From an uncultured Mycoplasmatota bacterium (lineage in GTDB: Bacteria; Bacillota_I; Bacilli_A; RF39; UBA660), in contig URWD01000002.1 in assembly GCA_900551525.1 (NCBI GenBank), positions 1,152 to 65,151 of the forward strand: DNA of 64,000 bases, written 5' to 3'. The notes beneath the pieces are model-generated. The model was given only the letters and a program-made list of their open reading frames with translations, was not told the DNA's origin and ran no database searches. This document shows positions 4,466 through 58,862 of this stretch, piece by piece. The stretch's first letter is position 1. Each line of letters opens with the position of its first letter. Made by a program: the position numbers and the translations under genes.

Positions 4466-4490
4466 GCTCGCACAACTTGCGAGTTTTAAT
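4465..4490 (+). terminator. Possible rho-independent terminator
   Basis: Stem AGCTCGCA (4465-4472) pairs with TGCGAGTT (4478-4485), followed by a short TTTT tract. Confidence 0.4.
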
Positions 4491-4508
4491 GTGCCCTAAA
4501 AAATAGCT

Positions 4509-4536
4509 TTACAACTTAAAAATAATTTGCTATAAT
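4509..4536 (+). promoter_or_regulatory. Sigma-A-type promoter candidate
   Basis: TTACAA (4509-4514), a 16-nt spacer, then TATAAT (4531-4536), about 27 nt upstream of ATG 4563. Confidence 0.4.
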
Positions 4537-4562
4537 TTATTCATAATAAAGGGCGTGATTAA

Positions 4563-7710: not shown

Positions 7711-7732
7711 AAATCATAGGTAGGTGGGCAAA

Positions 7733-8494
7733 ATGCATAGTTTTAAAAAATCTGCAATAATTGCTTTTTCATCACTATTTTTACTAACAAATGTAAACGC
7801 AGCTACATGTGGTTATGAAGAAAAAGCAAAGTTAAATAATGAAATAACAAATGTAAAGGCAAATTATGAAATTAAAGAAAGGGTAATGAATAAAGACGAA
7901 TATACAATTTCCGATGCTTTAATTGGAACTGAATACGAAGATACGTATGAAGCCACAACAGAATATATTCAAGTAAATATTTTGAATTTAACTGAAAATA
8001 TGTATGTTGAAGTAACAAATGATTATAACGATGATAAAGCTATATATCAATATAGTGACACAAAAAACGGGAACATATCATTTGATTGGCATGAAATTGA
8101 TGAACTGGTAACATATACTATTAAGGTTTATGCCTCAAGCGCTACAGGATGTGAAGGAACGATACTAAAAACATTGTATCAAGCTTTACCAAGGTATAAT
8201 GATTACTCAACATATGATATTTGTAAAAATATTCCTGATTCGTATTTATGTCAAAGGTATGTAACATATGAAAATATCGGTTTTGATGTTTTTACTGGTA
8301 GAATATATAAAGAAGTAGAAAAGAAAATTCAAAAAGAAGAAGAAACTAAAGAAAATGAAAAATGGTATAAAAAGGTTCAAAACTTTATTGTTAAACATAA
8401 AGTGCCATTTATCATCGGGGGAACAATATTGGTTGTCGCAGTTGGAAGTACAACATATATAATAATAAAGAAACGTAGGAGAAGTATAATATGA
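7733..8494 (+). CDS. Secreted protein with C-terminal TM anchor and 4 Cys; first gene of the operon (unknown function)
   Basis: The start is ATG 7733 (alternative GTG 7724), preceded by a G-rich RBS (GGTGGG). It has the signal peptide AIIAFSSLFLLTNVNA/ATC and the C-terminal anchor PFIIGGTILVVAVGSTTYIII followed by KKRRRS. There is no LPXTG motif. Confidence 0.6.
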   Translation: MHSFKKSAIIAFSSLFLLTNVNAATCGYEEKAKLNNEITNVKANYEIKERVMNKDEYTISDALIGTEYEDTYEATTEYIQVNILNLTENMYVEVTNDYNDDKAIYQYSDTKNGNISFDWHEIDELVTYTIKVYASSATGCEGTILKTLYQALPRYNDYSTYDICKNIPDSYLCQRYVTYENIGFDVFTGRIYKEVEKKIQKEEETKENEKWYKKVQNFIVKHKVPFIIGGTILVVAVGSTTYIIIKKRRRSII

Positions 8495-11400
8495 AAAAAA
8501 ATTTGAAAATATTAATAATTTTATTAACAATTTTTATTGGTTTTGCTAGCGCTGATGTTAAAGCTAGAACCATTGAAGAAAAAGAACAATTTACAAAACA
8601 AGCTAGTGGAAAACATAGTATCAGTGGTTTGAGCATTTTTGATGGTACTACATTTGGTATGTGGAAATATTCATTTGTTGATACTTCCAGTGAAAATTTT
8701 GTGGGATACTGTATGGACCCACATAAAGACGCATCTAATGGATATAAAGTCGATCGTATTCTCGGAGATACAGCGTATACAAAAAGAATAAATGCTTTTG
8801 ACCTAGGTGTCCTAGAAATTATTAAAAATGGTAAAAACCAATATAATGATAGTTTAACCTTTACAGTTGATGGCAGTTCAAAAACAATTAGTGGAGATTC
8901 ACTTTATGCTGCAACAAGTATAGCGGTACGTGCTTTTGCTTTAGGTGTCTTTGGATATGGCGGAGATGTTGAAAGTGCTAAATCAAGTCTAGTTCCATAT
9001 TATACAGGTGTTGCATCAGCACATATAACTAGGGGAATTCAATGGGCATCATACAACATAGATAAAATAAATACAATAACTGATACAAAATGTACAGGTT
9101 CTGTTGAAGATTTCAGAAAATGTTATGAAAAAACTTTTATTAAAGGATTTTTAAAGAATAATTGGTATAAAAATAGTTATAATTTCAAAATAAGCAGCAG
9201 TAGCTCTGAAGGCTATTTAGTAATGTATGCGGCTCAAAGTTTATTTATGAAAGGTTTTAACAGAGCATATGAAGTAATAACTGGTGATGTAACGACTGCT
9301 ACAGTTACAGCAACTGCCAACCCTTCAACAACAGATAAAACAACAACAGATAATACTATTGAAGAATATTATCATCAAACAATAGAGTTTGCTCAATTTG
9401 ATGCTCAAGATGGAAAAATAGATAATTTTACATTAACATGTCAAGACTGTGCAAAAAATAATATAACTTTAGGAAATCTTGAATTTTTTAATCCACAAAT
9501 AAATGATTGGCAAGTTGTTTCAAATATTAACGTTTTAACAGCATTTGATGCTGATGGTAAAACAAAAAGTGGAAAAATAGAATTGAGATTTAAAGTTACT
9601 AGGATAAAAGATGATGAAAATTGCAAATCAGTAAATTATAAAATATCATATAGATACGATGACCCAAGTTTAAAATACATCGGAGCATTATTGAAAACTA
9701 GTGATACAAGTAAACAAAGATTCTTTATTATTCAAAAAAATGATGGAAATTTAAAAAGTGAAATAACTGGAACGATAAAATGTTCAGCTTCTTGTGATAC
9801 AGAATTAGAATTACCAGTATGTAGCTATGAAGAAGATGATGCTGTTGCAAAAATCAATGGTCCAACCAAGATTAAAACTTGTATAATAGATAACCAAGAT
9901 GATGCAGGTAACACATATCAATTTACATCAGATGTAGGTGGAGTTGACAATTCTTACTGTAAAATCTATTGTAAAGAAGATTATGCAGAAATTAAATTAA
10001 ACCCAATAGTTAAAAATGTAAAATGTGGTGGATATTTCAAATTAACAAGTAAAATAAATGGTACAAAAACTTGTTATACAGGAAGTCCAAATACAACAGA
10101 AAACTCAACAAATGGTAAAAACAGTATAGATAAAGAAAAGTATTTACAAGATATAATTGCTGCTCAAAATAAAATGATTGAAGGCAGAGATTGGATATTA
10201 AAGGCTGAAGCGGCTTGGAAAACTATTCATGAACATACTGTTTCTTGTAGTTGTAATGGTTCTTATGATTATAATCACTCTCATGGTTCATATGCAGGAA
10301 TTGAAGCTGGAACTCCAACTGCAGAAGGATATGTACCAATAAAAAATGCCACACATAGCTACAGCATCGGCGGTGGCGGTGCATGCAATGTTGATTGGGA
10401 TGAATGTCCAAATGCTAACGGAAATGGTACTCATCGTTGTTGCGGAAGTGCAAATCCTACAGATGGAGATAGTTATAGTGATGTTTCTAACAAAATTCAA
10501 TCTCAATATTACAACCACGGAAAACAATTAATAGAAGAAGGTTTCAGAGCTTATGAAAAGGCTTTGAGAGATTACAATGCTTGTACAACAGCATGGACAA
10601 ACGAATTTGCTTTTGCTCAAGAAGTAAGATATTATTATGATGAAAATCGTGGAAAAGATAATACAAACTATGCTCCATACTTTGATTTATTAACTGGTAA
10701 AGATGAATTACAAAAATTAGAAAAATATGGAAATGAAAAAGTTGATACAAAAATTACAGTATGCACTGGGGCAACAAATGACAAGTATGAATGCTTAAAT
10801 AAAAATAATGAAAAAACATTTGACTTATCAATAGATAGCAACAGAAAAGTTGATTATAATTATAATTCATCATATGGAAATGTCTTTGCAACAAAACCAT
10901 ATACAACTTGTACAGTAAATGGTTGCGAAACAAAGAACCCATACGTTTCACAAGCAGCGTTTATAAAAAAAGAAGTAACAAAAGAACAAAAATACATTAC
11001 ACCAACAGCTTTCTATCAAATAGCTGCTAACGGAAAAGTAATAGCTTACGACAATTATTCAATTGATAAGGTTCAACTAGAACCATTAGTTAATAAATTA
11101 CCAATATCAACAAGTTCAGTTGGTGGTGGAGTATTCAAACTACTAGTTGAAAATCTTGGTGAATTCTATGATAAAAAAGATACTTATGGTAGATTAATTG
11201 ATTACAATGGAGTTAATGAAACTAAGAGTGTAGCTTATGCAGTAGGTGTAAACGCATTTGATGGCGAATATGTATGCTACTATGAAAATACATGTAGACC
11301 AAAAGATTGTCCTAACTGTGACTTTGTTTGTGAAGGTGATGGATGTGAATGGAAAGACTGTCCTTCATGCAACATATCATGTGTTAACTGTATATTCAAC

Positions 11401-11937
11401 TTAGACGATTTAAATATAATAGTTAAAACAATTACTACAACAGATGTAAATGCAGCAAATAGAACACATGGTTATAACTGGATTACATCAAGTAGTATGG
11501 AAGCATTACAATTATTAACTAAAAAAGCTTCAATGACAATTAGTGAAATTGAAGAAATAAATGAAATGATATATGATGATAAGACAACAGATGGATCAAC
11601 ACTTGGATTTAGTATTAAATTAACACCTGAAATAATAAATAAAATTACAGCATATAACAAAGACAATGAAGATAATGGTGGTTATATAAATAACTCATTA
11701 ACATGTTATGATGCCACAATTGATGGTGAAACATATAAAAACATTTATTGTTATAGCGAACTAATTGACAAGTTAGTTACTGAAAATGGTGATAATGTTA
11801 CAGTACTTCCGAGTAGAGTAAATGATGAAGCAAGACGTGCTAATGACACTGGAACTAGTGGTTATTGGACATTATGGTCAAATTATAGAATAGATAAAAC
11901 AAGTGAATCCGTAATCGGCGGACCATCTTGGAAATAA
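8491..11937 (+). CDS. 1148-aa secreted cysteine-rich protein (candidate filament-associated adhesin; function unknown)
   Basis: ATG overlaps the upstream TGA, and the RBS is AGGAGAAG. It has the signal peptide MKKNLKILIILLTIFIGFASADVKA and about 37 Cys by my count. Ten of those Cys fall within 39 residues (nt 11275-11391), including a tandem KDCPxCxxxC repeat. It has no TM and no LPXTG. Confidence 0.7.
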   Translation: MKKNLKILIILLTIFIGFASADVKARTIEEKEQFTKQASGKHSISGLSIFDGTTFGMWKYSFVDTSSENFVGYCMDPHKDASNGYKVDRILGDTAYTKRINAFDLGVLEIIKNGKNQYNDSLTFTVDGSSKTISGDSLYAATSIAVRAFALGVFGYGGDVESAKSSLVPYYTGVASAHITRGIQWASYNIDKINTITDTKCTGSVEDFRKCYEKTFIKGFLKNNWYKNSYNFKISSSSSEGYLVMYAAQSLFMKGFNRAYEVITGDVTTATVTATANPSTTDKTTTDNTIEEYYHQTIEFAQFDAQDGKIDNFTLTCQDCAKNNITLGNLEFFNPQINDWQVVSNINVLTAFDADGKTKSGKIELRFKVTRIKDDENCKSVNYKISYRYDDPSLKYIGALLKTSDTSKQRFFIIQKNDGNLKSEITGTIKCSASCDTELELPVCSYEEDDAVAKINGPTKIKTCIIDNQDDAGNTYQFTSDVGGVDNSYCKIYCKEDYAEIKLNPIVKNVKCGGYFKLTSKINGTKTCYTGSPNTTENSTNGKNSIDKEKYLQDIIAAQNKMIEGRDWILKAEAAWKTIHEHTVSCSCNGSYDYNHSHGSYAGIEAGTPTAEGYVPIKNATHSYSIGGGGACNVDWDECPNANGNGTHRCCGSANPTDGDSYSDVSNKIQSQYYNHGKQLIEEGFRAYEKALRDYNACTTAWTNEFAFAQEVRYYYDENRGKDNTNYAPYFDLLTGKDELQKLEKYGNEKVDTKITVCTGATNDKYECLNKNNEKTFDLSIDSNRKVDYNYNSSYGNVFATKPYTTCTVNGCETKNPYVSQAAFIKKEVTKEQKYITPTAFYQIAANGKVIAYDNYSIDKVQLEPLVNKLPISTSSVGGGVFKLLVENLGEFYDKKDTYGRLIDYNGVNETKSVAYAVGVNAFDGEYVCYYENTCRPKDCPNCDFVCEGDGCEWKDCPSCNISCVNCIFNLDDLNIIVKTITTTDVNAANRTHGYNWITSSSMEALQLLTKKASMTISEIEEINEMIYDDKTTDGSTLGFSIKLTPEIINKITAYNKDNEDNGGYINNSLTCYDATIDGETYKNIYCYSELIDKLVTENGDNVTVLPSRVNDEARRANDTGTSGYWTLWSNYRIDKTSESVIGGPSWK

Positions 11938-11948
11938 GGGGTGACTAA

Positions 11949-12362
11949 ATGAAGAATGCATTCTGGGCATACTGGTTGATACTATTAGGTATAGTAATCG
12001 TAGTAATAATGCTACTTGTTCAAAATCTTACAACAAGTAGCACTCAAGATTACTATCTAATTAAAGAAATAACTGAAGCATCTATGATTGATGCAGTAGA
12101 TTATTCTTATTATAGAACCTATGGTGAAGTAAAAATAAACAAAGAAAAATTTTATGAAAGTTTTATACGTCGTTTTTCAGAAAATGCCGCATTAAACACA
12201 ACTTACACAGTAAGCTTTTATGGAGTTTATGAAGCTCCCCCAAAAGCTAGTGTAGAAATTAAAAGTAAATCTAATACATTCAATGTTGTAGGTGATTCAA
12301 CTACATTTGATATGGTAGAAAGAATAGATGCAATACTTGAAGGTAATACACTTGATGAATAA
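11949..12362 (+). CDS. N-terminally anchored small protein, possibly pseudopilin-like
   Basis: RBS GGGGTG precedes the start. FWAYWLILLGIVIVVIMLLV is a TM, followed by a ~100-aa extracytoplasmic domain. Confidence 0.45.
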   Translation: MKNAFWAYWLILLGIVIVVIMLLVQNLTTSSTQDYYLIKEITEASMIDAVDYSYYRTYGEVKINKEKFYESFIRRFSENAALNTTYTVSFYGVYEAPPKASVEIKSKSNTFNVVGDSTTFDMVERIDAILEGNTLDE

Positions 12363-12379
12363 CATAAGGAGGAATAAAA

Positions 12380-13150
12380 ATGGGTGGTAAGAAAAATGTA
12401 TTTACAAAGTTTTTAACAAATAAAACAACAGTTACGTTAGTAGGTATTGTTCTAGGACTAGGAGTTTTAGTGGGATTTTACATATATCGTGTTAATAAAC
12501 AAGTAAATCCCACCCGTATTCCTGTTGCTAAAAGAGCTATAAGTGCTACTGAAGAAATAACAAAAGATGACATCGAATATGTCAAAGTTAGTAAAAGTTT
12601 CTTAAAAAAAAGAGATGTTTATCAATCAGTAACAAATTTAGTTGGTAAATATGTTTCAACTGGAACATCTATTCCTAAGGGAGGAATGTTCTATACAGCT
12701 CAAGTTGTTGAAAAAAAGGAATTACCAAATGCTATATTTGATGAAATACCTGAAGGATATACAATCTATCAATTAAAAGTAGATAATAATACAACATATG
12801 CTAATTCAATATATCCTGGTGATAAAATAGATTTATGGCTTAAAACAACTGAAAATGGTATTTTAGTTTTTGGTGAATTTATATCAAATATTGAGGTCTT
12901 AGCAGTTCGTGATAATGCTGGTCAAAATGTTTTTGATGTTACAAGTGGAAGAACTCCAGCATGGTTATTATTTGCTGTAAAGACTGATTTATATCGTTAT
13001 TTAAAACTAGCTGAAAGCATATCTGGGATGACTATTATTCCGGTTCCAAAAAATAATTTGGCAAATCCAGATGTTGGGTCAACTGAATATACAAGTCAAG
13101 AACTTATAGATATTCTAGATAGACAAACTCTTAGAATGGAGGCCCAATAA
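12380..13150 (+). CDS. cpaB: Flp pilus assembly protein CpaB-like (SAF domain), paralog 1
   Basis: RBS AAGGAGG precedes the start. It has an N-terminal TM, the SAF-like segment IPVAKRAISATEEITKDDIEYVKV, and a C-terminal beta-rich RcpC/CpaB-like part. Confidence 0.6.
   Translation: MGGKKNVFTKFLTNKTTVTLVGIVLGLGVLVGFYIYRVNKQVNPTRIPVAKRAISATEEITKDDIEYVKVSKSFLKKRDVYQSVTNLVGKYVSTGTSIPKGGMFYTAQVVEKKELPNAIFDEIPEGYTIYQLKVDNNTTYANSIYPGDKIDLWLKTTENGILVFGEFISNIEVLAVRDNAGQNVFDVTSGRTPAWLLFAVKTDLYRYLKLAESISGMTIIPVPKNNLANPDVGSTEYTSQELIDILDRQTLRMEAQ
12792..12846. repeat. 55-nt patch nearly identical (54/55) to 13562-13616
   Basis: CAACATATGCTAAtTCAATATATCCTGGTGATAAAATAGATTTATGGCTTAAAAC, with a single t/c difference at 12805/13575. 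The flanking paralog sequence is clearly diverged. Confidence 0.9.
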
Positions 13151-13959
13151 TGAATAATATCTTAGCAAAAATTAAAAATTTATTTCTTAATAGAAATACT
13201 GTTACAATATTGGGCGTTATAGCTGGTGTTATAGCATTATGGTTTGCTTATAGTATAACTTTAGACAAAGCTGTAAAACCTCAAAAAGTGCCAGTTGCAG
13301 CCAAAGATTTAACTGCAGGAACAATTATAACAAAAGAAGATATTGAATATGTTGAAGTAAATTCTGATGTATTAAAAAAGGCAAGTGTAGTAACTAGTTC
13401 TTCACAACTTATTGGTTATTATGTAACAAATAATACATCAGTAGTTCGTGGTTCAATGTTTTACAAAAGTCAAGTTGTAACAAAAGATAAATTAATTGAA
13501 AGAGATTTGGAAACAGTCCCAGAAGGTTATAGACTTTACTGGCTAAAAGTAGACAATGCTTCAACATATGCTAACTCAATATATCCTGGTGATAAAATAG
13601 ATTTATGGCTTAAAACTAAGAATGAAGGCAAATATGTATACGAAGAATTTATAACAAATATTGAAGTTCTTAGTGTTAAAGATTCAAAAGGACAAAATGT
13701 TTTTGATGTATCAAGCGGAAGAACTCCAGCAGTACTTGTATTTGCAGTAACAGATGAAATGTTCTCATATTTAAGTAAAATAGGTTATTTAAGTGGTATG
13801 GATTTATATCCAGTTCCAATTAATAAAAAGAATTCAGATAAAGATGCTACTACAGAAATAACAAATGATGCTTTAAGAACATTAATCGATAGCCAAGCTA
13901 GAAATGTTACACCAGATACAAATGAATCAAATAATGATAATAATACAAATAATGAATAA
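13150..13959 (+). CDS. cpaB: Flp pilus assembly protein CpaB-like (SAF domain), paralog 2
   Basis: The start overlaps the upstream stop (TAATG). The architecture matches 12380-13150: VPVAAKDLTAGTIITKEDIEYVEV, and it shares the block YANSIYPGDKIDLWLKT. Confidence 0.6.
   Translation: MNNILAKIKNLFLNRNTVTILGVIAGVIALWFAYSITLDKAVKPQKVPVAAKDLTAGTIITKEDIEYVEVNSDVLKKASVVTSSSQLIGYYVTNNTSVVRGSMFYKSQVVTKDKLIERDLETVPEGYRLYWLKVDNASTYANSIYPGDKIDLWLKTKNEGKYVYEEFITNIEVLSVKDSKGQNVFDVSSGRTPAVLVFAVTDEMFSYLSKIGYLSGMDLYPVPINKKNSDKDATTEITNDALRTLIDSQARNVTPDTNESNNDNNTNNE
13562..13616. repeat. Second copy of the 55-nt conserved patch (see 12792-12846)
   Basis: Direct comparison of the two stretches gives an offset of exactly 770 nt. 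Confidence 0.9.
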
Positions 13960-13965
13960 AAGAGG

Positions 13966-15072
13966 GTGTTACTAGTGAATGATGCTGTATTTTCACAAAT
14001 AGATTTTGGACCTTTAAAAGAGTTTTTAGAAGAAGATAACATAACTGACGTATCATATTCTAATGGTGGTCAAGTTTGGCTAAAAACTCTTGATAAAGGT
14101 ATATATAGGGTTGAAAGACCAGAAATAAATAATGCTTTAATGGAAAAGCTAGCTTTTCAATGTTCAAATGTTATGGGTAAAACATTTAATATGGCCCATC
14201 CATTTTTGGATGCTGAATCTGCAGAACTTCGTTTAAACTTTGTTCATGAATCTATAGCCACAAATGGTATTTGTTGCGTTATAAGAAAGACGCCTGCCAA
14301 AATCCGTCTAAACAAAGATAAACTGATAAATGAAAAATATGTAACAGAGGATTTACATGACTTTTTAATGACTTGTGTTGAAGGACACTGTAATATTATT
14401 GTAAGTGGGGAAACTGGATCAGGTAAAACAGAACTTGTTAAATACTTAGCCGCTCATACAAAAGAAAATGAAAAAATAATAACAATTGAAGATACTCTAG
14501 AACTTCACTTAGATAAAATATTTCCACATCGTGATATTGTTGCTATGAAAACAAATAATATTGCATCTTACTCAGATGTACTAGTAACATGTATGCGACA
14601 AAACCCAAGATGGATTTTACTATCCGAAGTTCGTTCAGCAGAAGCAGTTACAGCAGTACGTAACTCAATATCATCTGGACACAACATTATATCAACAATT
14701 CACTCAGATAGAGCTTTAAACATACCAATGCGTTTATATAGTTTGCTAGAAAACAGTCAAGATATAGACCAATTCTTAAAGTCAATTCACAGATATGTTC
14801 AAATTGGTGTTCATGTTAAAGGTTACATGAGTAAAGAATTAGGTAGATTCCAACGTGAAATAATCGAAGTCGTAGAATTTTATGTTGATGAAAATAACGA
14901 AGCAAAATCCAATATTATCTTTAAAAAAAGTTTAGATGGCAAGTTCAGTTTTAATAACCCAAGTAAATATTTAATTGACTATTTAGGTGTTCAAGGTGTA
15001 ACATTAAAACCAGATTATTTTGTCAAATCAAAAAATGACACAAATTCAGAAGCTGAAATAGAAAGCTTATAA
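13966..15072 (+). CDS. cpaF: CpaF/TadA-type (VirB11-like) type II/IV secretion ATPase
   Basis: It has Walker A VSGETGSGKTE, Walker B / Asp box RWILLSEVR and His box SGHNIISTIHS, at ~365 aa. The start is GTG 13966 or in-frame GTG 13975; the RBS AAGAGGG at 13960-13966 overlaps GTG 13966, so it favours 13975. Confidence 0.85.
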   Translation: MLLVNDAVFSQIDFGPLKEFLEEDNITDVSYSNGGQVWLKTLDKGIYRVERPEINNALMEKLAFQCSNVMGKTFNMAHPFLDAESAELRLNFVHESIATNGICCVIRKTPAKIRLNKDKLINEKYVTEDLHDFLMTCVEGHCNIIVSGETGSGKTELVKYLAAHTKENEKIITIEDTLELHLDKIFPHRDIVAMKTNNIASYSDVLVTCMRQNPRWILLSEVRSAEAVTAVRNSISSGHNIISTIHSDRALNIPMRLYSLLENSQDIDQFLKSIHRYVQIGVHVKGYMSKELGRFQREIIEVVEFYVDENNEAKSNIIFKKSLDGKFSFNNPSKYLIDYLGVQGVTLKPDYFVKSKNDTNSEAEIESL

Positions 15073-15090
15073 CAGAAAGGAGCGTTTAAT

Positions 15091-16014
15091 ATGTTTACAG
15101 TTAATTTAACAAGTTATTTACCAGAATTGTTAATACTATTAGCAATTGCTACAGTGGTTTTAATAGCTCGTCGAAATCCTGGTGAAAACGTATATAAATA
15201 TGTAACAAATAAAGCAACTGATATGTATGATAAATACGCTCCATACTCATTTAAAATGGTAAGAGAAAAAGCAGTTGAATTAGGACAAGAATATACTCCA
15301 AGACAATATTTAACACAAGTTATAATTCTTGGTGGTATAGCAGCTTTAGTAGGATATTTTTACTTTTATAGTATTGTCATTGCTGTAATATATGCAATTG
15401 TAGCCATAGCATTTATACCATATCTTGCTTATTTAAGACTACAAAGAGTGTATAGTGAATATATATTTGAACAAATACAAACATATACAACAAATGTTAT
15501 AATGGAATTTAATACAACTCAAAGTTTTGTTAAAGCTCTTGAAGGTGTTAGAGATTCAGGGATTCTTGAAGAACCAGTTGTTAGTGATGTCAAAAAGATG
15601 ATTGAAATGTCATATCAAAATGGTACCATAGATGAATCAATAACTTATTTTAATAGCAAATACCCATTTTACATGGTAAAAAATATGCATCAATTATTCC
15701 TACAAATAACCAAAGAAGGTGCCAGAGATTCAGGACAAGCATTAGAAAATATGTCACTTGATATTGATGCCTTAGTAGAAGGTGTATATCGTGACCAAAT
15801 GGACAGAAATAATTTCCATGGCAGATTCCTAAGATTCGGTTTAATTTTATATTTACTCGTTATAGTTTTAAGATTCATGTTAGGTGAAGACAATTATATT
15901 AAATTACTAGATATATGGTATGTACAAATTATTTTACATGCTATTGTCATTATAAATGCTTTCTTTATGTTAAGTGGAGAAAAATACTATAATGAAGATG
16001 TAGGAGGAGAATAA
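15091..16014 (+). CDS. tadB: TadB-like platform protein (T2SS-F family)
   Basis: RBS AAAGGAG precedes the start. It is polytopic, with an N-terminal TM, a central TM pair and a C-terminal TM pair. The cytoplasmic helical domain is TTNVIMEFNTTQSFVKALEGV..., and the gene sits directly after the ATPase. Confidence 0.6.
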   Translation: MFTVNLTSYLPELLILLAIATVVLIARRNPGENVYKYVTNKATDMYDKYAPYSFKMVREKAVELGQEYTPRQYLTQVIILGGIAALVGYFYFYSIVIAVIYAIVAIAFIPYLAYLRLQRVYSEYIFEQIQTYTTNVIMEFNTTQSFVKALEGVRDSGILEEPVVSDVKKMIEMSYQNGTIDESITYFNSKYPFYMVKNMHQLFLQITKEGARDSGQALENMSLDIDALVEGVYRDQMDRNNFHGRFLRFGLILYLLVIVLRFMLGEDNYIKLLDIWYVQIILHAIVIINAFFMLSGEKYYNEDVGGE

Positions 16015-16802
16015 TGCAAATAGAAGTTATTATTGTCGCTGTAATCGTATTTGGTATAATGACTATAACTGGTCAAATAAGTATTAATCAGCTTATAAGT
16101 GATAATCAAATGCTTTTTATGAAGTTAAAAGAAAAAGATTGGGATTTTCTAGTCAGAGCCAAGTATGGAAATAATGTTAATCCAGACATTCTCTTTAATA
16201 AAAGAATAAAAAATGCTCTAATTACTATGGCTATAGCATTTGCCTTTTTAATCAAAGATTTAAATGCTGTTAAAGTATTATTAATATTTGTTCTAGGAGT
16301 GTTTATCTTTAAAACATCTTATAATGATATAAAAAAATATTATCAACGACATATGTCTGAAATAGACTCGATGTTACCACATTATTTAAAAAACCTAGAA
16401 ATATTAATTCAACATTATACTGTACCAGTTGCTATTGGTAAATCAATGGCTGAATCACCAGAAATATTTAAAGATGGATTACAAGAAATGATTGACTCTA
16501 TAAATTCTGGGGATGATACGATCGAACCATATATGGAATTTGCTAGAAAGTATCCAGTACGTGATTCAATGCGTATGATGCGTTTATTATATCGTCTAAG
16601 TTTAGGACGTCAAGAAAGAAAACAAGAACAAATACTAACATTTTCAAGATCAATATCTTCACTTCAACAAAAAGCTCGTGAAACAAGATACAAAAATAGA
16701 CTAGAAAAAATGGAAGGCAAAACCATGAGTATGCTTATAACAACTGGGGTAGGATTAATGATATTACTAGTTTTAGCTGTTATACAACTTATGGACATAT
16801 AA
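16014..16802 (+). CDS. tadC: TadC-like platform protein (T2SS-F family)
   Basis: TAATG overlap with the upstream gene. It has LPHYLKNLEILIQHYTVPVAIGKSMAESPEIFKDGLQEMIDSINSGDDTIEPYMEFARKYP and a C-terminal TM, typical of GspF/TadC domains. Confidence 0.65.
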   Translation: MQIEVIIVAVIVFGIMTITGQISINQLISDNQMLFMKLKEKDWDFLVRAKYGNNVNPDILFNKRIKNALITMAIAFAFLIKDLNAVKVLLIFVLGVFIFKTSYNDIKKYYQRHMSEIDSMLPHYLKNLEILIQHYTVPVAIGKSMAESPEIFKDGLQEMIDSINSGDDTIEPYMEFARKYPVRDSMRMMRLLYRLSLGRQERKQEQILTFSRSISSLQQKARETRYKNRLEKMEGKTMSMLITTGVGLMILLVLAVIQLMDI

Positions 16803-16826
16803 ATTTACAAAAAGTTTAAAATATAA

Positions 16827-16855
16827 TTGATATTTTAAGGAAATTAAGTTATAAT
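16827..16855 (+). promoter_or_regulatory. Internal sigma-A-type promoter in front of the pilin genes
   Basis: TTGATA (16827-16832), a 17-nt spacer, then TATAAT (16850-16855). A strong RBS GGAGG (16871-16875) follows. Confidence 0.55.
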
Positions 16856-16882
16856 AAAAATATATTAAAAGGAGGATAACAA

Positions 16883-17128
16883 ATGAAAGAAGCTACTGGA
16901 GAATTAAATATGACTGTAGTTACTGTAGTTGCAATTGCTGCTGTTGGTGCTTTCTTCTATTTCTTTATCTGGCCTGGTATTCAAGCTGGACTTTCAAGAA
17001 ATACTTGCCTAAATCTATGTCCAGGCGGAGAATTGGACACAGCCCAAGGACGTGGTGGTGTAGATGTTAATAACAGAACTTGTTTTTGTGCAGATGGAAC
17101 ACAAATAGATTTTGGCGACGAAGAATAA
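16883..17128 (+). CDS. Small Flp-sized pilin candidate 1 (81 aa, 4 Cys in the head)
   Basis: The layout is a short polar leader MKEATGELNMT, a ~22-aa hydrophobic helix VVTVVAIAAVGAFFYFFIWPGI, and a small Cys-containing C-terminal part. It sits in a Tad-like operon. Confidence 0.5.
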   Translation: MKEATGELNMTVVTVVAIAAVGAFFYFFIWPGIQAGLSRNTCLNLCPGGELDTAQGRGGVDVNNRTCFCADGTQIDFGDEE

Positions 17129-17150
17129 GACAAAACATAAGAGGTGAAAA

Positions 17151-17411
17151 ATGAAAGAGGCTACAGGAGAATTAAATATGACGATAATAGTTTCTATATC
17201 GATCGGTATCTTGGCAGCCTTTTTTTTCGGCTTTTTATGGCCAATGATTAATGGAAATTTTCAAAAAAATTCACAATGTAGCAAAGCTATATGTGATTGT
17301 AGTACTGAAGTAAGAAATACAATAGAAAACGAAACTGGTCAAAAAAATCATTGTTTATGCAGAAATAGTGCAACAGATGAAAACACTTTTTATTGCCCAT
17401 TCAAAGGTTAG
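17151..17411 (+). CDS. Small Flp-sized pilin candidate 2 (86 aa, 6 Cys in the head)
   Basis: RBS AGAGGTGA precedes the start. The leader MKEATGELNMT is identical to pilin 1 at the protein level and nearly so at the DNA level. A hydrophobic helix follows, then a divergent Cys-rich head. Confidence 0.5.
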   Translation: MKEATGELNMTIIVSISIGILAAFFFGFLWPMINGNFQKNSQCSKAICDCSTEVRNTIENETGQKNHCLCRNSATDENTFYCPFKG

Positions 17412-17420
17412 GAGGAAATT

Positions 17421-17918
17421 ATGAAAGAATCGATGAGTGTAACATATATATTTCAAATAGTAATACTATTTATTCTATTATTTACAGCAATAATGGCTTT
17501 AACAATAAATAATTCCAACGCCTTTGGAATTAAAGACCAAATAGTAAATATATTAGAAGCAAATGGGGGAAATTACTTAGAAGACGGAAATTTAGATGAA
17601 GAAATAATAAATTTAATAGAAAGTACATCATATCGTACAACTGGAAAATGCGATGAAGATTATCAAGGTTTTGATAGAACTGGAGCTGCTGTTTCATCTA
17701 ATCAAGATGCATCAATATGCATAAAAGAAGTAAATGCAACAGATGGTGTAGATAATTATCTATCGGATATTTTTGGCACTGGTAAAGTTGCAACAGGTGA
17801 TTTTATGCCAGGCAAATATTATCAAATAGTAGTATTTTTCCAATTAGATTTACCAGTTGTAAAACAAGTTTATAATTTTAAATCTAAAGCTGAAACAAAA
17901 GTTATATACCAAAAATAA
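17421..17918 (+). CDS. TadE-like pseudopilin candidate 1
   Basis: RBS AGGAGG precedes the start. The N-terminal helix is TYIFQIVILFILLFTAIMALTI, followed by a ~135-aa domain. It shares TGKC(D/P)E(D/N)... with 17932-18384. Confidence 0.4.
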   Translation: MKESMSVTYIFQIVILFILLFTAIMALTINNSNAFGIKDQIVNILEANGGNYLEDGNLDEEIINLIESTSYRTTGKCDEDYQGFDRTGAAVSSNQDASICIKEVNATDGVDNYLSDIFGTGKVATGDFMPGKYYQIVVFFQLDLPVVKQVYNFKSKAETKVIYQK

Positions 17919-17931
17919 GGAGAGAAATTAA

Positions 17932-18384
17932 ATGAAAACAGTAAGTGAATCAACATGGACATTTCAAATGATTATCTTCTTCATTCTAATATTTGCTTGT
18001 TTTCTAACTTTAGTTTTAAGTTATAATAAAGCTTATACAATAAAGAATCGTATGCTTAATATTATTGAAAAATATGAAGGTGTAACACCAACATCAGCTG
18101 AGCTAATAAATGACTACATATATAATAAAGGATATACCAATACTGGTAAATGTCCAGAAAACTGGATGGGAGCAACAAATATAGATGGAGAATTTGAGTT
18201 ATCAAAAAGTGATAACAGATATTTATATTGCTTTAAAAAAAGTTATAAAAATAATTTAGTATATTATGATGTAAAAGTTTTTTTTAGATTTAATTTACCT
18301 GTTATAGGTAGTATAGCAAACTATGAAATAGATGGAACAACAAAGACTTTTATAGGTGCAGAAGATCAAATAGAGGAGTATTAA
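17932..18384 (+). CDS. TadE-like pseudopilin candidate 2
   Basis: RBS AAGGAGAG precedes the start. The N-terminal helix is TWTFQMIIFFILIFACFLTLVL. It is a paralog of 17421-17918. Confidence 0.4.
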   Translation: MKTVSESTWTFQMIIFFILIFACFLTLVLSYNKAYTIKNRMLNIIEKYEGVTPTSAELINDYIYNKGYTNTGKCPENWMGATNIDGEFELSKSDNRYLYCFKKSYKNNLVYYDVKVFFRFNLPVIGSIANYEIDGTTKTFIGAEDQIEEY

Positions 18385-18385
18385 T

Positions 18386-19375
18386 ATGAATGTAATAGTA
18401 TCAAATAAATATCAATCATTATTATCAAGTTTAAATATTGATGTAATTAAAAGTATAAATGGAGAATTTACAGTAGAAGAATTAGTAAGTCAATTTCAAA
18501 GTTTTTACTTTAATAAAATGATTATAGACATAACAGCAATAAAAGGTTATGAAGAAATAACAGTAATGCAAAATTTATCTGTAAATTTTGATATGTCTAA
18601 AGTTATTTTATTACTAGATGATTCAGAAAAAGTTAATTCTCCAGTATATATATCACAATTAATATCTATGGGAATATACAATTTCACCAGTGATATAAAT
18701 ACAGTAAAATACCTAATAGATAATCCCAATCAATACAAAGATGTAGCAAACTATCATAATATAAGTGGATTTAAGAAACCAGTATTAAATGAAAGATCTG
18801 TTGATAATACTCGTGGTAAAATGGGGCAAAAGATTATTGGCTTTAAAAACATTACAGAACATGCTGGTGCAACAACACTAATATATTTGCTTAAATTACA
18901 CTTAGAAAAGGCATATAATGTTAAAGCTGTAGAAATAGATAAAAATGACTTTATATATTTTAATGATAATACACTTGAAAGTGTATCAAGTTTAGGTTTT
19001 AATGATTTTTTAAGTAATAATACCAATTATGATATAATTTTAGTTGATTTAAATGATGGAAACGTATCTGAGTACTGTCATGATATAATTTATTTAATTG
19101 AACCAGGTCTTATTAAATTAAATAAGTTAATTAGAGAAGACAATGCTATATTTACTAAATTAAATGAAAAAAAGATAGTTCTTAACAGAAGTGTACTTGA
19201 CACAAAAGATGTACAAGACTTTGAAAAAGAAAGTGGAAGTAAAGTTTTTTTCAATATGCCTTGTTTAGATGATAAGTTAGATGATCAAATGGTAGTTAAT
19301 GCTTTTTTAACAGCCTTAGGTTTTAGTAGAATTGATGCAAATGGAAGTTCAGGAATATTTAGTATATTCAAATAG
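18386..19375 (+). CDS. TadZ/CpaE-like protein: receiver-like N-domain plus ParA/MinD-like domain with degenerate Walker A
   Basis: RBS GAGGAG precedes the start. The N-terminus has a flavodoxin-like pattern (MNVIVSN...KMIIDITA...VILLLDD). The C-terminus has IIGFKNITEHAGATTLIYLL (where KGGxGKTT is expected), DIILVDLN, IYLIEPG and KIVLNR. Confidence 0.5.
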   Translation: MNVIVSNKYQSLLSSLNIDVIKSINGEFTVEELVSQFQSFYFNKMIIDITAIKGYEEITVMQNLSVNFDMSKVILLLDDSEKVNSPVYISQLISMGIYNFTSDINTVKYLIDNPNQYKDVANYHNISGFKKPVLNERSVDNTRGKMGQKIIGFKNITEHAGATTLIYLLKLHLEKAYNVKAVEIDKNDFIYFNDNTLESVSSLGFNDFLSNNTNYDIILVDLNDGNVSEYCHDIIYLIEPGLIKLNKLIREDNAIFTKLNEKKIVLNRSVLDTKDVQDFEKESGSKVFFNMPCLDDKLDDQMVVNAFLTALGFSRIDANGSSGIFSIFK

Positions 19376-19389
19376 GGAGGTAATGGAAT

Positions 19390-19740
19390 ATGAATTTTTG
19401 TTATAAGACTGCAAGTGTATGGTTATTTATTGGTAAATTATTATTCATTTTAAAGATATTAATACCAATAGCTATTATAGTATTAGGAAGCATAGATTTA
19501 GGAAAAGCAGTAATTTCAAGTGATGATAAATCAATAAAAACAGCTAGTACCAAGCTATTAAAAAGAATAGTAGCTGGAATATGCATTTTTTTCATACCAG
19601 TTATTATAAAAGTGTTATTTTCTATGATTGGCATTATAAGTGATGAAATAAAAAATGACTATATAAATTGTATAAACTGCATTACAGATCCGTATAACAA
19701 TTGTGATGCATCGTATGAAGGCAATATATACAAAAAATAA
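19390..19740 (+). CDS. 2-TM small membrane protein with N-terminal Cys and C-terminal C-x2-C-x6-C tail (family member 1)
   Basis: RBS GGGAGG precedes the start. Sequence: MNFCYKTASVWLFIGKLLFILKILIPIAIIVLGSIDLGKAVISSDDKSIK...RIVAGICIFFIPVIIKVLFSMIG...INCINCITDPYNNC. Confidence 0.6.
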   Translation: MNFCYKTASVWLFIGKLLFILKILIPIAIIVLGSIDLGKAVISSDDKSIKTASTKLLKRIVAGICIFFIPVIIKVLFSMIGIISDEIKNDYINCINCITDPYNNCDASYEGNIYKK

Positions 19741-19769
19741 TTGACTTTAATGTAAAATTAGGGTAAAAT
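19741..19769 (+). promoter_or_regulatory. Sigma-A-type promoter candidate
   Basis: TTGACT (19741-19746), a 17-nt spacer, then TAAAAT (19764-19769). RBS GAAGGAGG follows. Confidence 0.5.
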
Positions 19770-19796
19770 AAATATATACAGAAGGAGGAAAGTTTT

Positions 19797-20135
19797 ATGA
19801 ATTTTTGTGAAGATGCTGGTTCAGTTTGGTATACTCTTGGAATGTTTATGTTAGTATTCAAAGTTGTTATTCCAGTACTATTGATTGTTTTTGGAATGGT
19901 AGACTTAGGAAAAGCTGTAATATCAAGTGATGACAAAGCTGTATCAAAGGCTGCTAAAACATTATTAAATCGTGTTATAGCTGGGGTATGTATTTTCTTT
20001 ATTCCAACTATTGTAGGATTAGTATTTAAAATGGTTGGGGCATTTGGTGAGGTTAAAAATCAATATGATTATTGTGCTGCATGCGTAAGTAATCCAACCG
20101 GTGATAAATGTTCAGGTATAAAAAATAATGGCTAA
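19797..20135 (+). CDS. 2-TM small membrane protein with N-terminal Cys and C-terminal C-x2-C-x6-C tail (family member 2)
   Basis: Sequence: MNFCEDAGSVWYTLGMFMLVFKVVIPVLLIVFGMVDLGKAVISSDDKAVS...RVIAGVCIFFIPTIVGLVFKMVG...YCAACVSNPTGDKC. It is a paralog of 19390-19740. Confidence 0.6.
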   Translation: MNFCEDAGSVWYTLGMFMLVFKVVIPVLLIVFGMVDLGKAVISSDDKAVSKAAKTLLNRVIAGVCIFFIPTIVGLVFKMVGAFGEVKNQYDYCAACVSNPTGDKCSGIKNNG

Positions 20136-20157
20136 AAAAAATTAATAATTTAAACTT

Positions 20158-20196
20158 AACAAATGAGAAATTATTATTTCTCATTTGTTTTTTATT
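20158..20196 (+). terminator. Strong rho-independent terminator closing the operon
   Basis: A 14-bp perfect stem pairs AACAAATGAGAAAT (20158-20171) with ATTTCTCATTTGTT (20176-20189), with loop TATT, followed by TTTTTATTT. Confidence 0.85.
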
Positions 20197-20298
20197 TATA
20201 AAATATTTGATAAAAGATAAAGTATTACAGAATGTCAATATATCATTTTAAATAATATTATACAAAATGTGTAGATATAACAAATTAAAATTAATTCA

Positions 20299-20325
20299 TA
20301 AAAAATAGAGCTTATTCAGCTCTAT
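20299..20325 (-). terminator. Terminator of the 514-aa minus-strand gene
   Basis: Stem ATAGAGC (20305-20311) pairs with GCTCTAT (20319-20325) and spans the stop codon. The A-run 20300-20305 gives a U-run on the minus strand. Confidence 0.5.
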
Positions 20326-21856
20326 CTTCATATTCTCCAGTATAAGTATATCCTGCAAGTGATTTTTCTTTGCTCCATTTATATTCAAATGTTCTATGTG
20401 TCCAAGTATATTCAGTGTCAGTATCTATAATAGCATAGTCTTCATACTTAGATGCATTAGAAGCTAAATCCCATTTACATTTGCTTTCTCTTGTATAACT
20501 AACATCAAATTTCAATGGTACAAAATATACATTTTGACTTAAATTGCTAGCATAATATGGTGATACACCATTTAAATTTTTATAATTAATTGTAATTGTT
20601 GTAGCATAATTTCCTTCAGCTCTATTATAATAAGCTCCAGAAACTTCAAATGTAAAGTTATTTTTCTTTAATGAAGTATTTCTAAATGTTGATGCATTAT
20701 TTATTGCAACATTATATTTTCCAGTATTACCAGTCATATATAGGTTACCACGATTGTTAATATAAGCTTGATAGTCAGTATTTGAATTACTGAAATAAGA
20801 TTTACTATTGCCTACAATAGCAACACTATTAACATCACTAGGTAAATCTAGGAATTGAACTTCATAGTTATATTTACCAACTTTAGTAGTATCAGTAACA
20901 TATCCAGTTGAATAATAAGTTTTTTCATATTCTTTACAATAATTATTAGTTTCTACCAATTGTTTTTTATTTTCAGCATTAGAAGCATTAGAGTAACCGT
21001 TTTCCCAATCACTATATTTTACATATTTATAATATCTAACCTTGGTAGGTGTAGGATTAGGTTTGTTGTTATCGTTATTATTATTATTATTATTGTTATT
21101 GTTATTATTATTGTTATTGTTGCAATTTGTTTGACAACAACCATTTGAACAAGTTATTTTTATTGTAACCTTAGTAGTAACTGTTGTTTTAGTACTTGTA
21201 CTAGTGCTTGAACTATTTCCTTTACTAGTATTAGTATTATTTGAACTATTGTTACTATTTGTATTATTGTTAGTATTACTATTATTCTTATTTGTATTAG
21301 AATTTGTATTATTAGAGTTATTATTGTTGTTATTGTTATTATCAACAACATCAGTATTAGTTTTTGTATTATCTACTGTACAAGTTCCATTATCACATGA
21401 AGTCTTTTCAATAGTAGTAACAATAAAGTCTGATTGTTTTCCACAAGTTAAACTAACTTTTAATGCATAATTACCATCAGCAGTTTTAGTAGTTTGAATG
21501 TAACTTGAATTATTATCACAAGTTTTACCATCGTTAGTAAAATCGATTAATAACTTTTGGTTAATCATTTGTGCTAGTGTTACTTTTTCAGTTGCACCAA
21601 CTTTTTCAGGTAATTTTGATTTTGTGAAATATTCAAATGCTGCAGTTTTCATAGTGTTTATATTATTAATATATTTACTATTACTATCAGCTAATGTGTT
21701 ACTAGATTTAGTTGAACTATTGCCGGTTACTTTAACAAATATCCAACCAGCTATAAACACAATAACTGCAAGAATCACAAGTTTAATTGCAAGTGATCCC
21801 CAATTTAAACTTAAACTTTTCTTTCCATCTTCGTACATATAACGTACCCCCTTCAT
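20312..21856 (-). CDS. N-anchored surface protein with a pilin-like proximal domain, long Asn/Ser/Thr low-complexity spacers and a beta-rich C-terminal domain
   Basis: RBS GAGGA lies 8 nt upstream of ATG 21856. The TM is LAIKLVILAVIVFIAGWIFV. It has a Cys-bracketed domain (...DGKTCDNN...KVSLTCGKQ), poly-N runs, and a 250-aa Y/N/T-rich C-terminus. Confidence 0.7.
   Translation of the reverse strand: MKGVRYMYEDGKKSLSLNWGSLAIKLVILAVIVFIAGWIFVKVTGNSSTKSSNTLADSNSKYINNINTMKTAAFEYFTKSKLPEKVGATEKVTLAQMINQKLLIDFTNDGKTCDNNSSYIQTTKTADGNYALKVSLTCGKQSDFIVTTIEKTSCDNGTCTVDNTKTNTDVVDNNNNNNNNSNNTNSNTNKNNSNTNNNTNSNNSSNNTNTSKGNSSSTSTSTKTTVTTKVTIKITCSNGCCQTNCNNNNNNNNNNNNNNNNDNNKPNPTPTKVRYYKYVKYSDWENGYSNASNAENKKQLVETNNYCKEYEKTYYSTGYVTDTTKVGKYNYEVQFLDLPSDVNSVAIVGNSKSYFSNSNTDYQAYINNRGNLYMTGNTGKYNVAINNASTFRNTSLKKNNFTFEVSGAYYNRAEGNYATTITINYKNLNGVSPYYASNLSQNVYFVPLKFDVSYTRESKCKWDLASNASKYEDYAIIDTDTEYTWTHRTFEYKWSKEKSLAGYTYTGEYEDRAE
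21063..21123. repeat. Imperfect trinucleotide (ATT/GTT on +, i.e. AAT/AAC Asn codons on -) tract
   Basis: gttgttatcgttattattattattattattgttattgttattattattgttattgttg encodes an uninterrupted run of 15 Asn within NNNNNNNNNNNNNNNDNN. Confidence 0.9.
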
Positions 21857-22019
21857 TTGGAAAATCCTCTTTTCCTTTAAGTCGCCATTATTTTACCATA
21901 AAATATTCATTTTGTCAAATTTTATGCAATAAAAATTGTGGTATTTACAATAATTATATACTTTTGAAAAACTAATATTAAATATCTTTCTTAAAAAGTA
22001 TATTTTGAAAGAATATTAC

Positions 22020-43453: not shown

Positions 43454-43504
43454 ATTATCACCAAAATAATTGCTATAATAATTGTATAAGATAAGGTGAT
43501 ATTA

Positions 43505-58764: not shown

Positions 58765-58862
58765 TTTCCATTAATCCACCATGAGTCTAATTGTAGGAAT
58801 AAATTCCGTCCACACATCATACGATTAGAATAGAAAAATGAAAGATGGTGGATTAATGGAAA
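58765..58862 (+). promoter_or_regulatory. 18-nt perfect inverted repeat whose distal arm covers the spoIVA RBS and start codon
   Basis: TTTCCATTAATCCACCAT (58765-58782) is the exact reverse complement of ATGGTGGATTAATGGAAA (58845-58862). The second arm contains GGTGGA and ATG 58856. Confidence 0.6.
58799..58825 (+). promoter_or_regulatory. Sigma-E-like sporulation promoter candidate
   Basis: ATA (58799-58801), a 16-nt spacer, then CATACGAT (58818-58825). The published consensus is ATa-16/18-cATAca-T. This is matched by eye only. Confidence 0.3.

Follow-up and report, generated by a model that had tools for sequence, protein, structure and literature searches.

The window, that is the whole 64,000-nucleotide stretch of DNA analysed here, comes from an uncultured Mycoplasmatota bacterium and is chromosomal, with about 27% guanine plus cytosine (GC). 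The genes of interest are two adjacent small genes, pil1 and pil2, which lie within a conserved set of co-oriented genes that runs from 11949..20135, ends in a terminator-like hairpin and has uvrA, lgt and trxB downstream of it. The two genes probably encode the subunits of a highly diverged Tad-like filament. The evidence base is entirely computational, and the genomic context is drawn from 80 related loci of about 20 kb, in which all of the open reading frames (ORFs) were clustered into families.

The pil1 and pil2 genes and their family

The pil1 gene (16883..17128, + strand) encodes a pilin-like protein of 81 residues, presumably the major subunit, the head of which is variable, and pil2 (17151..17411, +) encodes an 86-residue pilin-like paralogue with six cysteines and a conserved C-terminal F-x-C-P-[FW]-K-G. 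Both proteins start with MKEATGELNMT, and the 33 nucleotides coding for this sequence differ between the two genes at three third positions only, all synonymous. The 80-nucleotide gap after the preceding gene holds the pil1 promoter, a sigma-70-type TTGATA-17-TATAAT (16827..16855, +) with 11 of 12 matches, which is the top promoter-like match on the + strand within 11.5 kb. A Shine-Dalgarno AGGAGG, read from the sequence at 16870..16875 (+), stands 7 nucleotides before the ATG of pil1, and GAGGTG at 17141..17146 precedes that of pil2. The first-pass annotation of this stretch had described twin small genes with a shared start and nearly identical DNA, a near-consensus promoter with a strong ribosome-binding site, and hydrophobic segments followed by heads with four and six cysteines, and on each of these points it was accurate.

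Could such features have arisen by chance? Across 68 related loci a promoter with at least 10 of 12 matches occupies the same site upstream of pil1 in 90%, against 5% for controls made of random 90-nucleotide windows of the same loci, and the Shine-Dalgarno position of pil1 is purine-rich among 110 homologues. In a codon-variation test of 110 homologous pil genes the fourfold-degenerate codons for A4, T5, G6 and T11 are free to vary whilst the residues are fixed, so that the constraint is on the peptide and not on the DNA or RNA. The positional conservation of the promoter, taken together with this codon pattern, means that the promoter and N-terminal features of the pil genes are beyond chance.

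Each of the two proteins has a single transmembrane (TM) segment, a hydrophobic helix at residues ~10-31, followed by a Cys-rich tail in which the cysteines fall at C42, C46, C67 and C69 in pil1 and at C43, C48, C50, C68, C70 and C82 in pil2. The head is acidic and 35-40 residues long. The two heads had initially been regarded as unrelated, which has to be corrected, for the alignment of pil1 with pil2 runs to residue ~50, and an AFF[YF]-x3-WP motif and a skeleton of C-x3/4-C and a later C-x-C are common to both. On this comparison pil1 and pil2 are paralogues of one unannotated family.

That family is large. Within a set of 5.8 billion proteins there are 1811 homologues of pil1 and 145 of pil2, all lacking both Pfam domains and informative names, and a combined pil1 and pil2 profile reaches at least 590 clusters at 50% identity, with the matches listed aligning from residue 1. 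Related loci are found in at least 386 species, mostly metagenome-assembled genomes of uncultured gut 'Bacilli', 'Tenericutes' and 'Clostridium sp. CAG', and the synteny is kept on metagenomic contigs of up to 323 kb. The N-terminal consensus of the family is M-[KR]-E-A-[TS]-[GS]-[ED]-L-N-x-[TA], with M-K-E-A-T-G at 93% or more at every position in the pilins. Among pil1 homologues the share of the commonest residue is 93-100% over residues 1-31, 73% over residues 32-47 and 33-42% in the head outside the cysteines. The AlphaFold2 model of pil1 (predicted local distance difference test, pLDDT, of 85) has a single long helix at 10-45 and then a small beta head. A related locus carries one to three pilin genes; pil1 is the first of them in 79 of the 80 loci, is followed by pil2 in 52 and is alone in 24.

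Small size, a common N-terminus, variable Cys-containing C-termini and tandem paralogues are also what would be seen if these were precursors of secreted Cys-rich peptides, either bacteriocin-like or signalling, with a common leader. Such an origin is scarcely credible. There is no double-glycine leader, no C39/ABC exporter and no immunity or modification gene nearby, the most conserved part of the proteins is a 20-residue TM helix, unlike any such leader, and the genes are embedded in an operon of T2SSE and T2SSF type. A bacteriocin-precursor identity for pil1 and pil2 was rejected on this leader, exporter, helix and operon evidence.

The operon and its assembly machinery

Across the 80 loci the conserved gene set consists of a DUF5411 protein, one or two CpaB/RcpC-SAF proteins, a T2SSE ATPase, polytopic proteins of ~300 and ~262 residues and then, in its 3' part, one to three pilins, one or two proteins of 150-200 residues with an N-terminal TM segment, a 329-residue protein and one or two T4SS_pilin-like proteins. 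In the window the set begins with the DUF5411 protein (11949..12362, +), which has an N-terminal TM segment, matches Pfam PF17424 at E=3.5e-58 and is present in 55 loci. It is followed by two paralogous CpaB/RcpC-like genes, the first of which (12380..13150, +) matches RcpC at E=1.3e-4 and SAF at E=5.9e-4, both under the gathering score, and the second of which (13150..13959, +) reaches 31.6 bits for RcpC (cut-off 28.8) and 31.2 bits for SAF (cut-off 21). The TadA/CpaF/VirB11-type secretion ATPase (13966..15072, +) matches Pfam T2SSE at E=7.6e-29 and, in NCBIfam, VirB11 at 2e-33 and the TadA family at 4e-31, both under their equivalog cut-offs.

Between the ATPase and the pilins lie genes for a polytopic TadB-like platform protein of 307 residues (15091..16014, +) and a polytopic TadC-like platform protein of 262 residues (16014..16802, +). 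Neither has a direct Pfam or PDB match or a meaningful one in NCBIfam, even when searched member by member, and a homologue search with a platform profile returned close unannotated relatives only, with no bridge to T2SSF. The two align weakly with each other in hhalign, and the AlphaFold2 model of the 307-residue protein (pLDDT 57) is too poor for a structure search. Their identity comes by way of a Priestia koreensis plasmid (NZ_CP061869.1), reached by tblastn of the window ATPase against plasmids, the platform pair of which is demonstrably homologous to that of the window. The 307-residue family aligns with the T2SSF-family protein of the plasmid over 235 columns (hhalign probability 93.8%, E=1.7e-7; tblastn 1e-8), and this plasmid protein itself matches Pfam T2SSF at E=3.4e-5. 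The 262-residue family aligns with the second platform gene over 195 columns (hhalign probability 97%, E=1.1e-10; tblastn 9e-18), and the 262-residue protein finds tblastn matches in 75 sources. The platform family as a whole extends to at least 8000 clusters at 90% identity.

Homology of this kind establishes the identity of the ATPase, the platform pair and the CpaB proteins. The combination of the ATPase with a split TadB/TadC-like platform indicates that the window encodes the core of a type IV filament machine, and pil1 and pil2, like Tad major pilins, are encoded together with a TadA-type ATPase, a split TadB/TadC platform and RcpC/CpaB proteins. The Tad-like operon around pil1 and pil2 went unmentioned in the first-pass annotation.

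Downstream of pil2 come two genes of a single family found in 77 of the 80 loci, encoding pseudopilin-like proteins with an N-terminal TM segment, one of 165 residues that starts MKESMS (17421..17918, +) and one of 150 residues that starts MKTVSE (17932..18384, +). Hhalign comparison of the pseudopilin-like family with DUF4320 proteins gives E=0.029 and 0.0043 over just 36 columns. A conserved cytoplasmic protein of 329 residues (18386..19375, +; 72 of the 80 loci) is possibly a degenerate ParA/TadZ-like protein. The labels TadE/DUF4320-like for the N-terminal TM pair and TadZ-like for the 329-residue protein reflect position, size and topology alone.

The last two genes encode VirB2-like proteins of the T4SS_pilin family, a family present in 62 of the 80 loci. 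The first (19390..19740, +) has 116 residues and two or three TM segments and is 47% identical to the second (19797..20135, +), a 112-residue protein with a Pfam T4SS_pilin match at E=9e-4, under the cut-off, and weak NCBIfam matches to CD3337/EF1877 and to the Mbov_0395 pilin-like family. The orthologue in a related locus reaches 28 bits for T4SS_pilin, where the cut-off is 26.6. The operon is closed by an intrinsic-terminator-like hairpin (20158..20189, +) with a 14-bp stem and then a T run. As for pil1 and pil2 themselves, identity with VirB2/TrbC-type pilins of type IV secretion systems (T4SSs; PF18895, PF04956) was considered and rejected, given their single TM segment and the lack of a profile match.

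The leader and its proposed processing

What kind of signal is carried by MKEATG? Among 138 pilins residue 6 is Gly in 129, and it is Gly or Ser among the representatives listed from the 590 pilin clusters. The same position in 131 pseudopilin-like proteins is Gly in 84, Ser in 34, Glu in 9 and Ala in 4, and in most related species these proteins start M-[KR]-E-[AS]-[IVM]-G-[GST]-x-W, as in MKEAIGGTWLF. That two otherwise unrelated families of the operon have the same six-residue start, ending in a small residue just ahead of a hydrophobic helix, supports a class-III-type signal with cleavage at TG|E, the site guessed in the first-pass annotation. The pilins, like type IV pilins in general, have a short leader with Gly at -1 and then a hydrophobic helix of ~20 residues, and these features support, at the level of sequence, the leader being a class-III (prepilin-type) signal cut after G6. 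The leader of Firmicute ComGC is equally short (MNEKG|F), and for A24 peptidases Gly at -1 is the main need, with many residues tolerated at +1.

On this basis the two proteins probably make up a highly diverged Tad-like (type IVc-like) filament of uncultured low-GC gut Bacilli, in which pil1 would be the major subunit and pil2 one with a minor or specialised part, and their leader is probably trimmed after G6 by an unlinked peptidase. We infer the membrane topology, cleavage, polymerisation and function of the two proteins as follows. Both would insert N-in/C-out by way of the conserved hydrophobic helix at residues ~10-31, and the leader MKEATG would then be removed after Gly6, at the cytoplasmic face, by a peptidase of the prepilin type whose gene lies in another part of the genome. 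Glu7 would become the new N-terminus, its carboxylate neutralising the N-terminal amine and so taking over the role of Glu+5 in canonical pilins. Extraction and polymerisation of the subunits would fall to the TadA/VirB11-type ATPase together with the pair of T2SSF-related platform proteins, with the small, acidic, Cys-cross-linked and hypervariable head pointing outward, and the two downstream pseudopilin-like proteins may start the fibre or form its tip. A promoter of their own and a strong ribosome-binding site would supply the stoichiometric excess needed for a structural subunit.

A number of observations weigh against this interpretation. Glu is not found at +5, where the pilins have Thr (or Ala) and the pseudopilin-like proteins Phe, and the +1 residue of the pilins is acidic (Glu or Asp) rather than hydrophobic (F/M/L). 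The leader is not basic (K2, E3, E7) and has a net negative charge, and residues 1-6 are conserved as strongly as the mature N-terminus, which is unusual for a discarded peptide. The DUF5411 proteins likewise begin MK[EN][AS], so that part of the common start may reflect preferred early codons. In a search of pil1 and pil2 by hmmscan against Pfam, Flp_Fap, N_methyl, Class_IIIsignal and TadE were all unmatched at E<=10, and Foldseek of the pil1 model against the PDB gave a best E of 5.4 and no match. The A24 motif G-x-[GAHS]-D-x-K, searched as a regular expression without a positive control, is present in no frame of the window, nor among the polytopic ORFs of the 80 related loci, and an A24 peptidase signature was not found on the conjugative plasmid pLS20 either. 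In a scan of 42 pseudopilin-like members the sole 'Tad' match was weak (E=0.1), with none to TadE or DUF4320, and the 329-residue protein has no Pfam or PDB match and no meaningful one in NCBIfam, its hhalign comparison with the ParA-like protein of Priestia (E=0.17, in the P-loop region) being non-significant. Finally, a filament has yet to be seen.

The pseudopilin-like proteins of the window clade raise a further difficulty, for they read MKESMS and MKTVSE, with Ser and Glu at position 6, and Gly-dependent cleavage cannot hold for all four proteins. G6 has been lost in this pair and kept in the pilins, and the pair is either uncleaved or cleaved in a Gly-independent manner.

Much of this would be accommodated if pil1 and pil2 were true filament subunits without A24 processing, in which MKEATGELN is kept in the fibre or cut by a different, unrecognised enzyme, and the 11 near-invariant residues serve either for docking to the platform or the ATPase or as structure within the fibre core. 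The absence of the A24 motif from the window, the 80 loci and pLS20 would then be expected, as would residues 1-11 being conserved as strongly as the helix, an N-terminus with a net charge of -1 and no basic leader, Ser or Glu at position 6 in the window-clade pseudopilin-like proteins, and plasmid counterparts that begin MLDQN[AT]DR with no Gly whatever. Yet a Gly or Ser at position 6 that recurs in two otherwise unrelated families of the operon points, in the classic way, to a cleavage site used by both, and prepilin peptidases are often unlinked, being shared between systems and missing from MSH loci (Denise et al. 2019, PMC6668835). An unlinked peptidase is consequently not unusual, and the lack of an A24 ORF in the window or the 80 loci means that the peptidase, if there is one, is unlinked. 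A relaxed motif, G-x-[GA]-D, in proteins with at least four TM segments likewise gave no candidate family in the window or the 80 loci. Subunits that escape A24 processing are considered unlikely, and a class-III signal trimmed after G6 is preferred.

How, then, do the pilins compare with known classes? The canonical Flp site G/xxxxEY is absent both here, where MKEATG/ELNMTVV has Thr at +5 and Val at +6, and across the 590 clusters, and the type IV pilin (T4P) site G/FTLxE is absent from both proteins. NCBIfam likewise gave no Flp_Fap match for either protein, and a PDB sequence-profile search with the pilin profile returned chance TM matches only. The first-pass annotation had reported both sites missing and no cognate peptidase in the window, and the motif scans agree. 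Its suggestion that the site lies closer to archaeal class-III signals finds no backing, for -2 is Thr and uncharged, there is no QxSxE-type motif, and Class_IIIsignal (PF04021) is not matched at E<=10; nor did the profile searches it had proposed, with Flp_Fap and class-III models, place the proteins in those families. The FlaFind-type rule is a charged residue at -2, Gly or Ala at -1 and a Q/A-type residue at +1. The first-pass annotation had also proposed a comparison of the TGE triplet among orthologues; G6 is present in 129 of 138 pilins, and the family consensus there is [TS]-[GS]-[ED]. The pilin reading itself fits what lies immediately upstream (a T2SSE ATPase, the pair of T2SSF-related platform proteins and proteins like CpaB/RcpC), the conserved N-terminus with its hypervariable head, the predicted long helix with a small beta head, and the M-[KR]-E-[AS]-x-G leader on the pseudopilin-like proteins of relatives. 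Overall the early interpretation is partly supported, in its pilin reading and its missing canonical sites, and fails over the unrelated heads and the archaeal affinity.

The Flp/Tad systems combine pilins such as Aggregatibacter Flp1 and Caulobacter PilA with TadA/CpaF, TadB/C, RcpC/CpaB, TadE/F and TadV. They resemble the window in that the subunits are tiny and have a long hydrophobic helix at the N-terminus, that a single ATPase goes with a platform split over two genes, and that CpaB/RcpC-like proteins are encoded and pseudopilin-like genes stand beside the pilins. The window has no secretin, as is the case in monoderm Tad systems, and Tad-like systems are already known in Gram-positive bacteria. 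The differences are that the pilins of the window lack G/xxxxEY and a Flp_Fap (PF04964) match, with an acidic +1 in place of Glu +5, and carry a Cys-braced head of 35-40 residues that Flp pilins are missing; that the platform is too diverged for a direct T2SSF match; that TadZ, TadE and TadF are not demonstrable; and that the locus is without TadV and has VirB2-like genes within the operon. Firmicute Com pilins and archaeal class-III pilins (EppA/FlaK/PibD-type) share with pil1 and pil2 a very short Gly-ending leader before a hydrophobic helix, and the archaeal pilins share the absence of Glu+5 as well. Unlike Com pilins, however, pil1 and pil2 have no FTLxE box and no N_methyl match, and their ATPase and platform belong with Tad/VirB11 and not with ComGA/ComGB. 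An origin of Tad systems from archaeal Epd-like pili has been proposed (PMC6668835).

Links to type IV secretion and plasmid modules

A VirB6-like polytopic gene or a VirB4-like ATPase gene lies directly 3' of the operon in 16 loci each, mostly both together, and the VirB4-like ATPase matches P-loop_TraG at 2.4e-13, AAA_10 and DUF87. This adjoining arrangement is seen in 14-15 of the 55 loci that have at least 9 kb downstream of the pilin. In a locus from Candidatus Coprovivens sp. (L037, 12867..19194), the source of the VirB2-like orthologue mentioned above, the operon leads into a second VirB2-like gene, a VirB6-like protein of ~900 residues, a small protein with two TM segments and the VirB4-like ATPase. 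Judged by gene order, the Tad-like module and the T4SS are a single gene cluster in this and 15 other loci. The window has no VirB4 or VirB6 homologue.

The closest plasmid relatives of the window ATPase are Bacillales genes of the 'CpaF/VirB11 family', including gene 37 of pLS20 (33% identity by tblastn). The pLS20-family conjugation operons hold an unrecognised filament-assembly-like module, at 8395..13214 in pLS20 (L085, NC_015148.1), with further examples at 4461..5189 in locus L088 and 9196..9599 in locus L086. In pLS20 a thioester adhesin comes first, followed by gene 36, which matches Pfam DUF5411 at E=1.4e-5, and by the ATPase. Next are two polytopic proteins and gene 40, with a DUF4320 match at E=6e-3, and after these stand three single-TM ORFs in tandem, gene 45 (T4SS_pilin, E=1.3e-7) and VirD4. 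The tandem ORFs have 47-57 residues: the two of 47 residues start MLDQNADR, and that of 57 residues has the same sequence after a 10-residue extension. Tandem MLDQNTDR copies occur four times on a Brochothrix plasmid and twice on a Paraclostridium plasmid. In the paper on the pLS20 family, genes 36 and 38-47 are of unknown function, as are the genes that flank its 'VirB11', and no pilus components are encoded (PMC8557374). Reviews hold that Gram-positive conjugation systems are without pili and without VirB11 homologues (PMC12857230, PMC11730352), a 2025 review describing the lack of VirB11 from Gram-positive T4SSs as universal (PMC12857230).

The gene order of this plasmid operon (genes 36-41 and 45 in Bacillus subtilis natto, with counterparts on Brochothrix pL21564-1 and on a plasmid of Paraclostridium) is the same as that of the window: an adhesin, a DUF5411-like protein, the T2SSE ATPase, two polytopic proteins, an N-terminal TM protein (~120 residues on the plasmids), tiny single-TM proteins in tandem, the first eight residues of which are invariant, and T4SS_pilin. 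The tiny plasmid proteins, of 47-57 residues and starting MLDQN[AT]DR, are unlike pil1 and pil2 in having neither a Gly nor a Cys head, and the likeness is positional only, in a small residue 6, an acidic residue 7 and an aromatic-Pro pair at 30-31 (two of three). Alignment of the pilin profile with p41 of pLS20 in hhalign detected no homology, and the polytopic p38 and p39 align weakly with the window platform (E 0.02 and 0.0015). Unlike the window, pLS20 has no CpaB-like genes, and unlike pLS20 the window locus is chromosomal, with no relaxase or VirD4 nearby. The Priestia plasmid, with a gene order that matches that of the window, encodes an immunoglobulin (Ig)-like surface protein, DUF5411, SAF/CpaB, a ParA-like protein where the window has its second CpaB-like gene, CpaF/VirB11, the T2SSF-family protein, the second membrane protein and DUF4320, and has no MKEATGELN-type pilin gene in the 13 kb searched.

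This context also brings into question whether pil1 and pil2 form a filament at all, as they might instead be small bitopic membrane parts of a T4SS-related envelope complex, standing for instance beside the VirB2-like proteins. The VirB2-like genes are constant partners in the operon and VirB4/VirB6 frequent ones, the two proteins have no canonical pilin motif or profile match, and the function of the corresponding pLS20 genes is given as unknown (PMC8557374). Exposed subunits, nevertheless, typically have a hypervariable and acidic head braced by Cys, a dedicated strong promoter argues for a high copy number, and there is no VirB4 or VirB6 gene in the window. The genes, moreover, come directly after the ATPase and the T2SSF-type platform pair, and such a platform is not known to do anything other than polymerise pilin-like proteins, which speaks against non-filament parts. 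A purely bitopic role is thus regarded as improbable, and the reading of pil1 and pil2 as filament subunits is retained. The VirB2-like genes within the operon, the VirB4/VirB6 adjacency and the pLS20-type module would together link the fibre to DNA transfer, and it probably mediates cell-cell or cell-surface contact connected with such transfer and not simple adhesion.

Upstream of the operon are a signal-peptide protein of 256 residues (7724..8494, +), in the same relative position in 39 of the 80 loci and with no Pfam family, and a signal-peptide surface protein of 1148 residues (8491..11937, +), a candidate adhesin conserved in 35 loci and with no Pfam match. The pair (7724..11937) sits where the plasmid modules have thioester, Ig-like or isopeptide adhesins. 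Convergent with the operon and just past its terminator, a 514-residue membrane-anchored protein (20312..21856, - strand) has long poly-Asn and Asn/Ser/Thr tracts, belongs to no Pfam family and keeps its position in ~20 related loci. Further away, two adjacent genes (43496..44812, 438 residues; 44831..46042, 403 residues) encode N-terminal signal/lipoprotein-type ectodomains that are unrelated to each other, joined to a common C-terminal module of 142 residues that is 98.6% identical between the two and shares 42-45% identity (E~1e-24) with the VirB2-like T4SS_pilin proteins of the operon. It seems that a VirB2-like membrane anchor was recently duplicated, or copied by gene conversion, and carries different cargo domains in the two genes. 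The N-terminus of the product of 58838..60334 (…GVVGAVRTGKSTFIKRF…) is presumably like that of the sporulation ATPase SpoIVA, which would suggest a spore-forming host. A megablast of 12000..22000 against plasmids and phages gave no match.

What is unusual about pil1 and pil2 is the signal, with its acidic +1, its lack of Glu+5 and its 11-residue N-terminus that is near-invariant across the sampled species, together with the mini-head and the absence of a linked peptidase. Unusual too are the coupling to VirB2, VirB4 and VirB6 genes and the plasmid counterpart in a model conjugation system, the components of which are annotated as unknown. It is possible, albeit doubtful when all of its parts are taken jointly, that pil1 and pil2 represent a class of type IV filament subunits not recognised before, whose signal is new in having a non-basic leader of six residues, an acidic +1 and no Glu+5, and is processed by a non-A24 or unlinked enzyme or not at all; that their Tad-derived module is coupled to Gram-positive type IV secretion as a mating or contact pilus of monoderms; and that genes 36-41 of the pLS20 family, with the 'VirB11', are the plasmid version of it.

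The locus shows that the VirB11-like type of ATPase belongs to a complete filament-assembly module, with a platform pair and pilin-like, pseudopilin-like and VirB2-like proteins, to which the version in gut Bacilli adds CpaB-like proteins and often VirB4/VirB6 neighbours. If the fibre is real, it would be a testable candidate for how monoderm donors reach recipients, and the sequence rules for class-III signals would be widened; PilFind/FlaFind-type rules would probably miss such pilins. It would also mean that a major surface structure, hypervariable in sequence, has been identified in gut bacteria that are abundant but uncultured. For genetic work on the question, pLS20 in B. subtilis is a tractable system.

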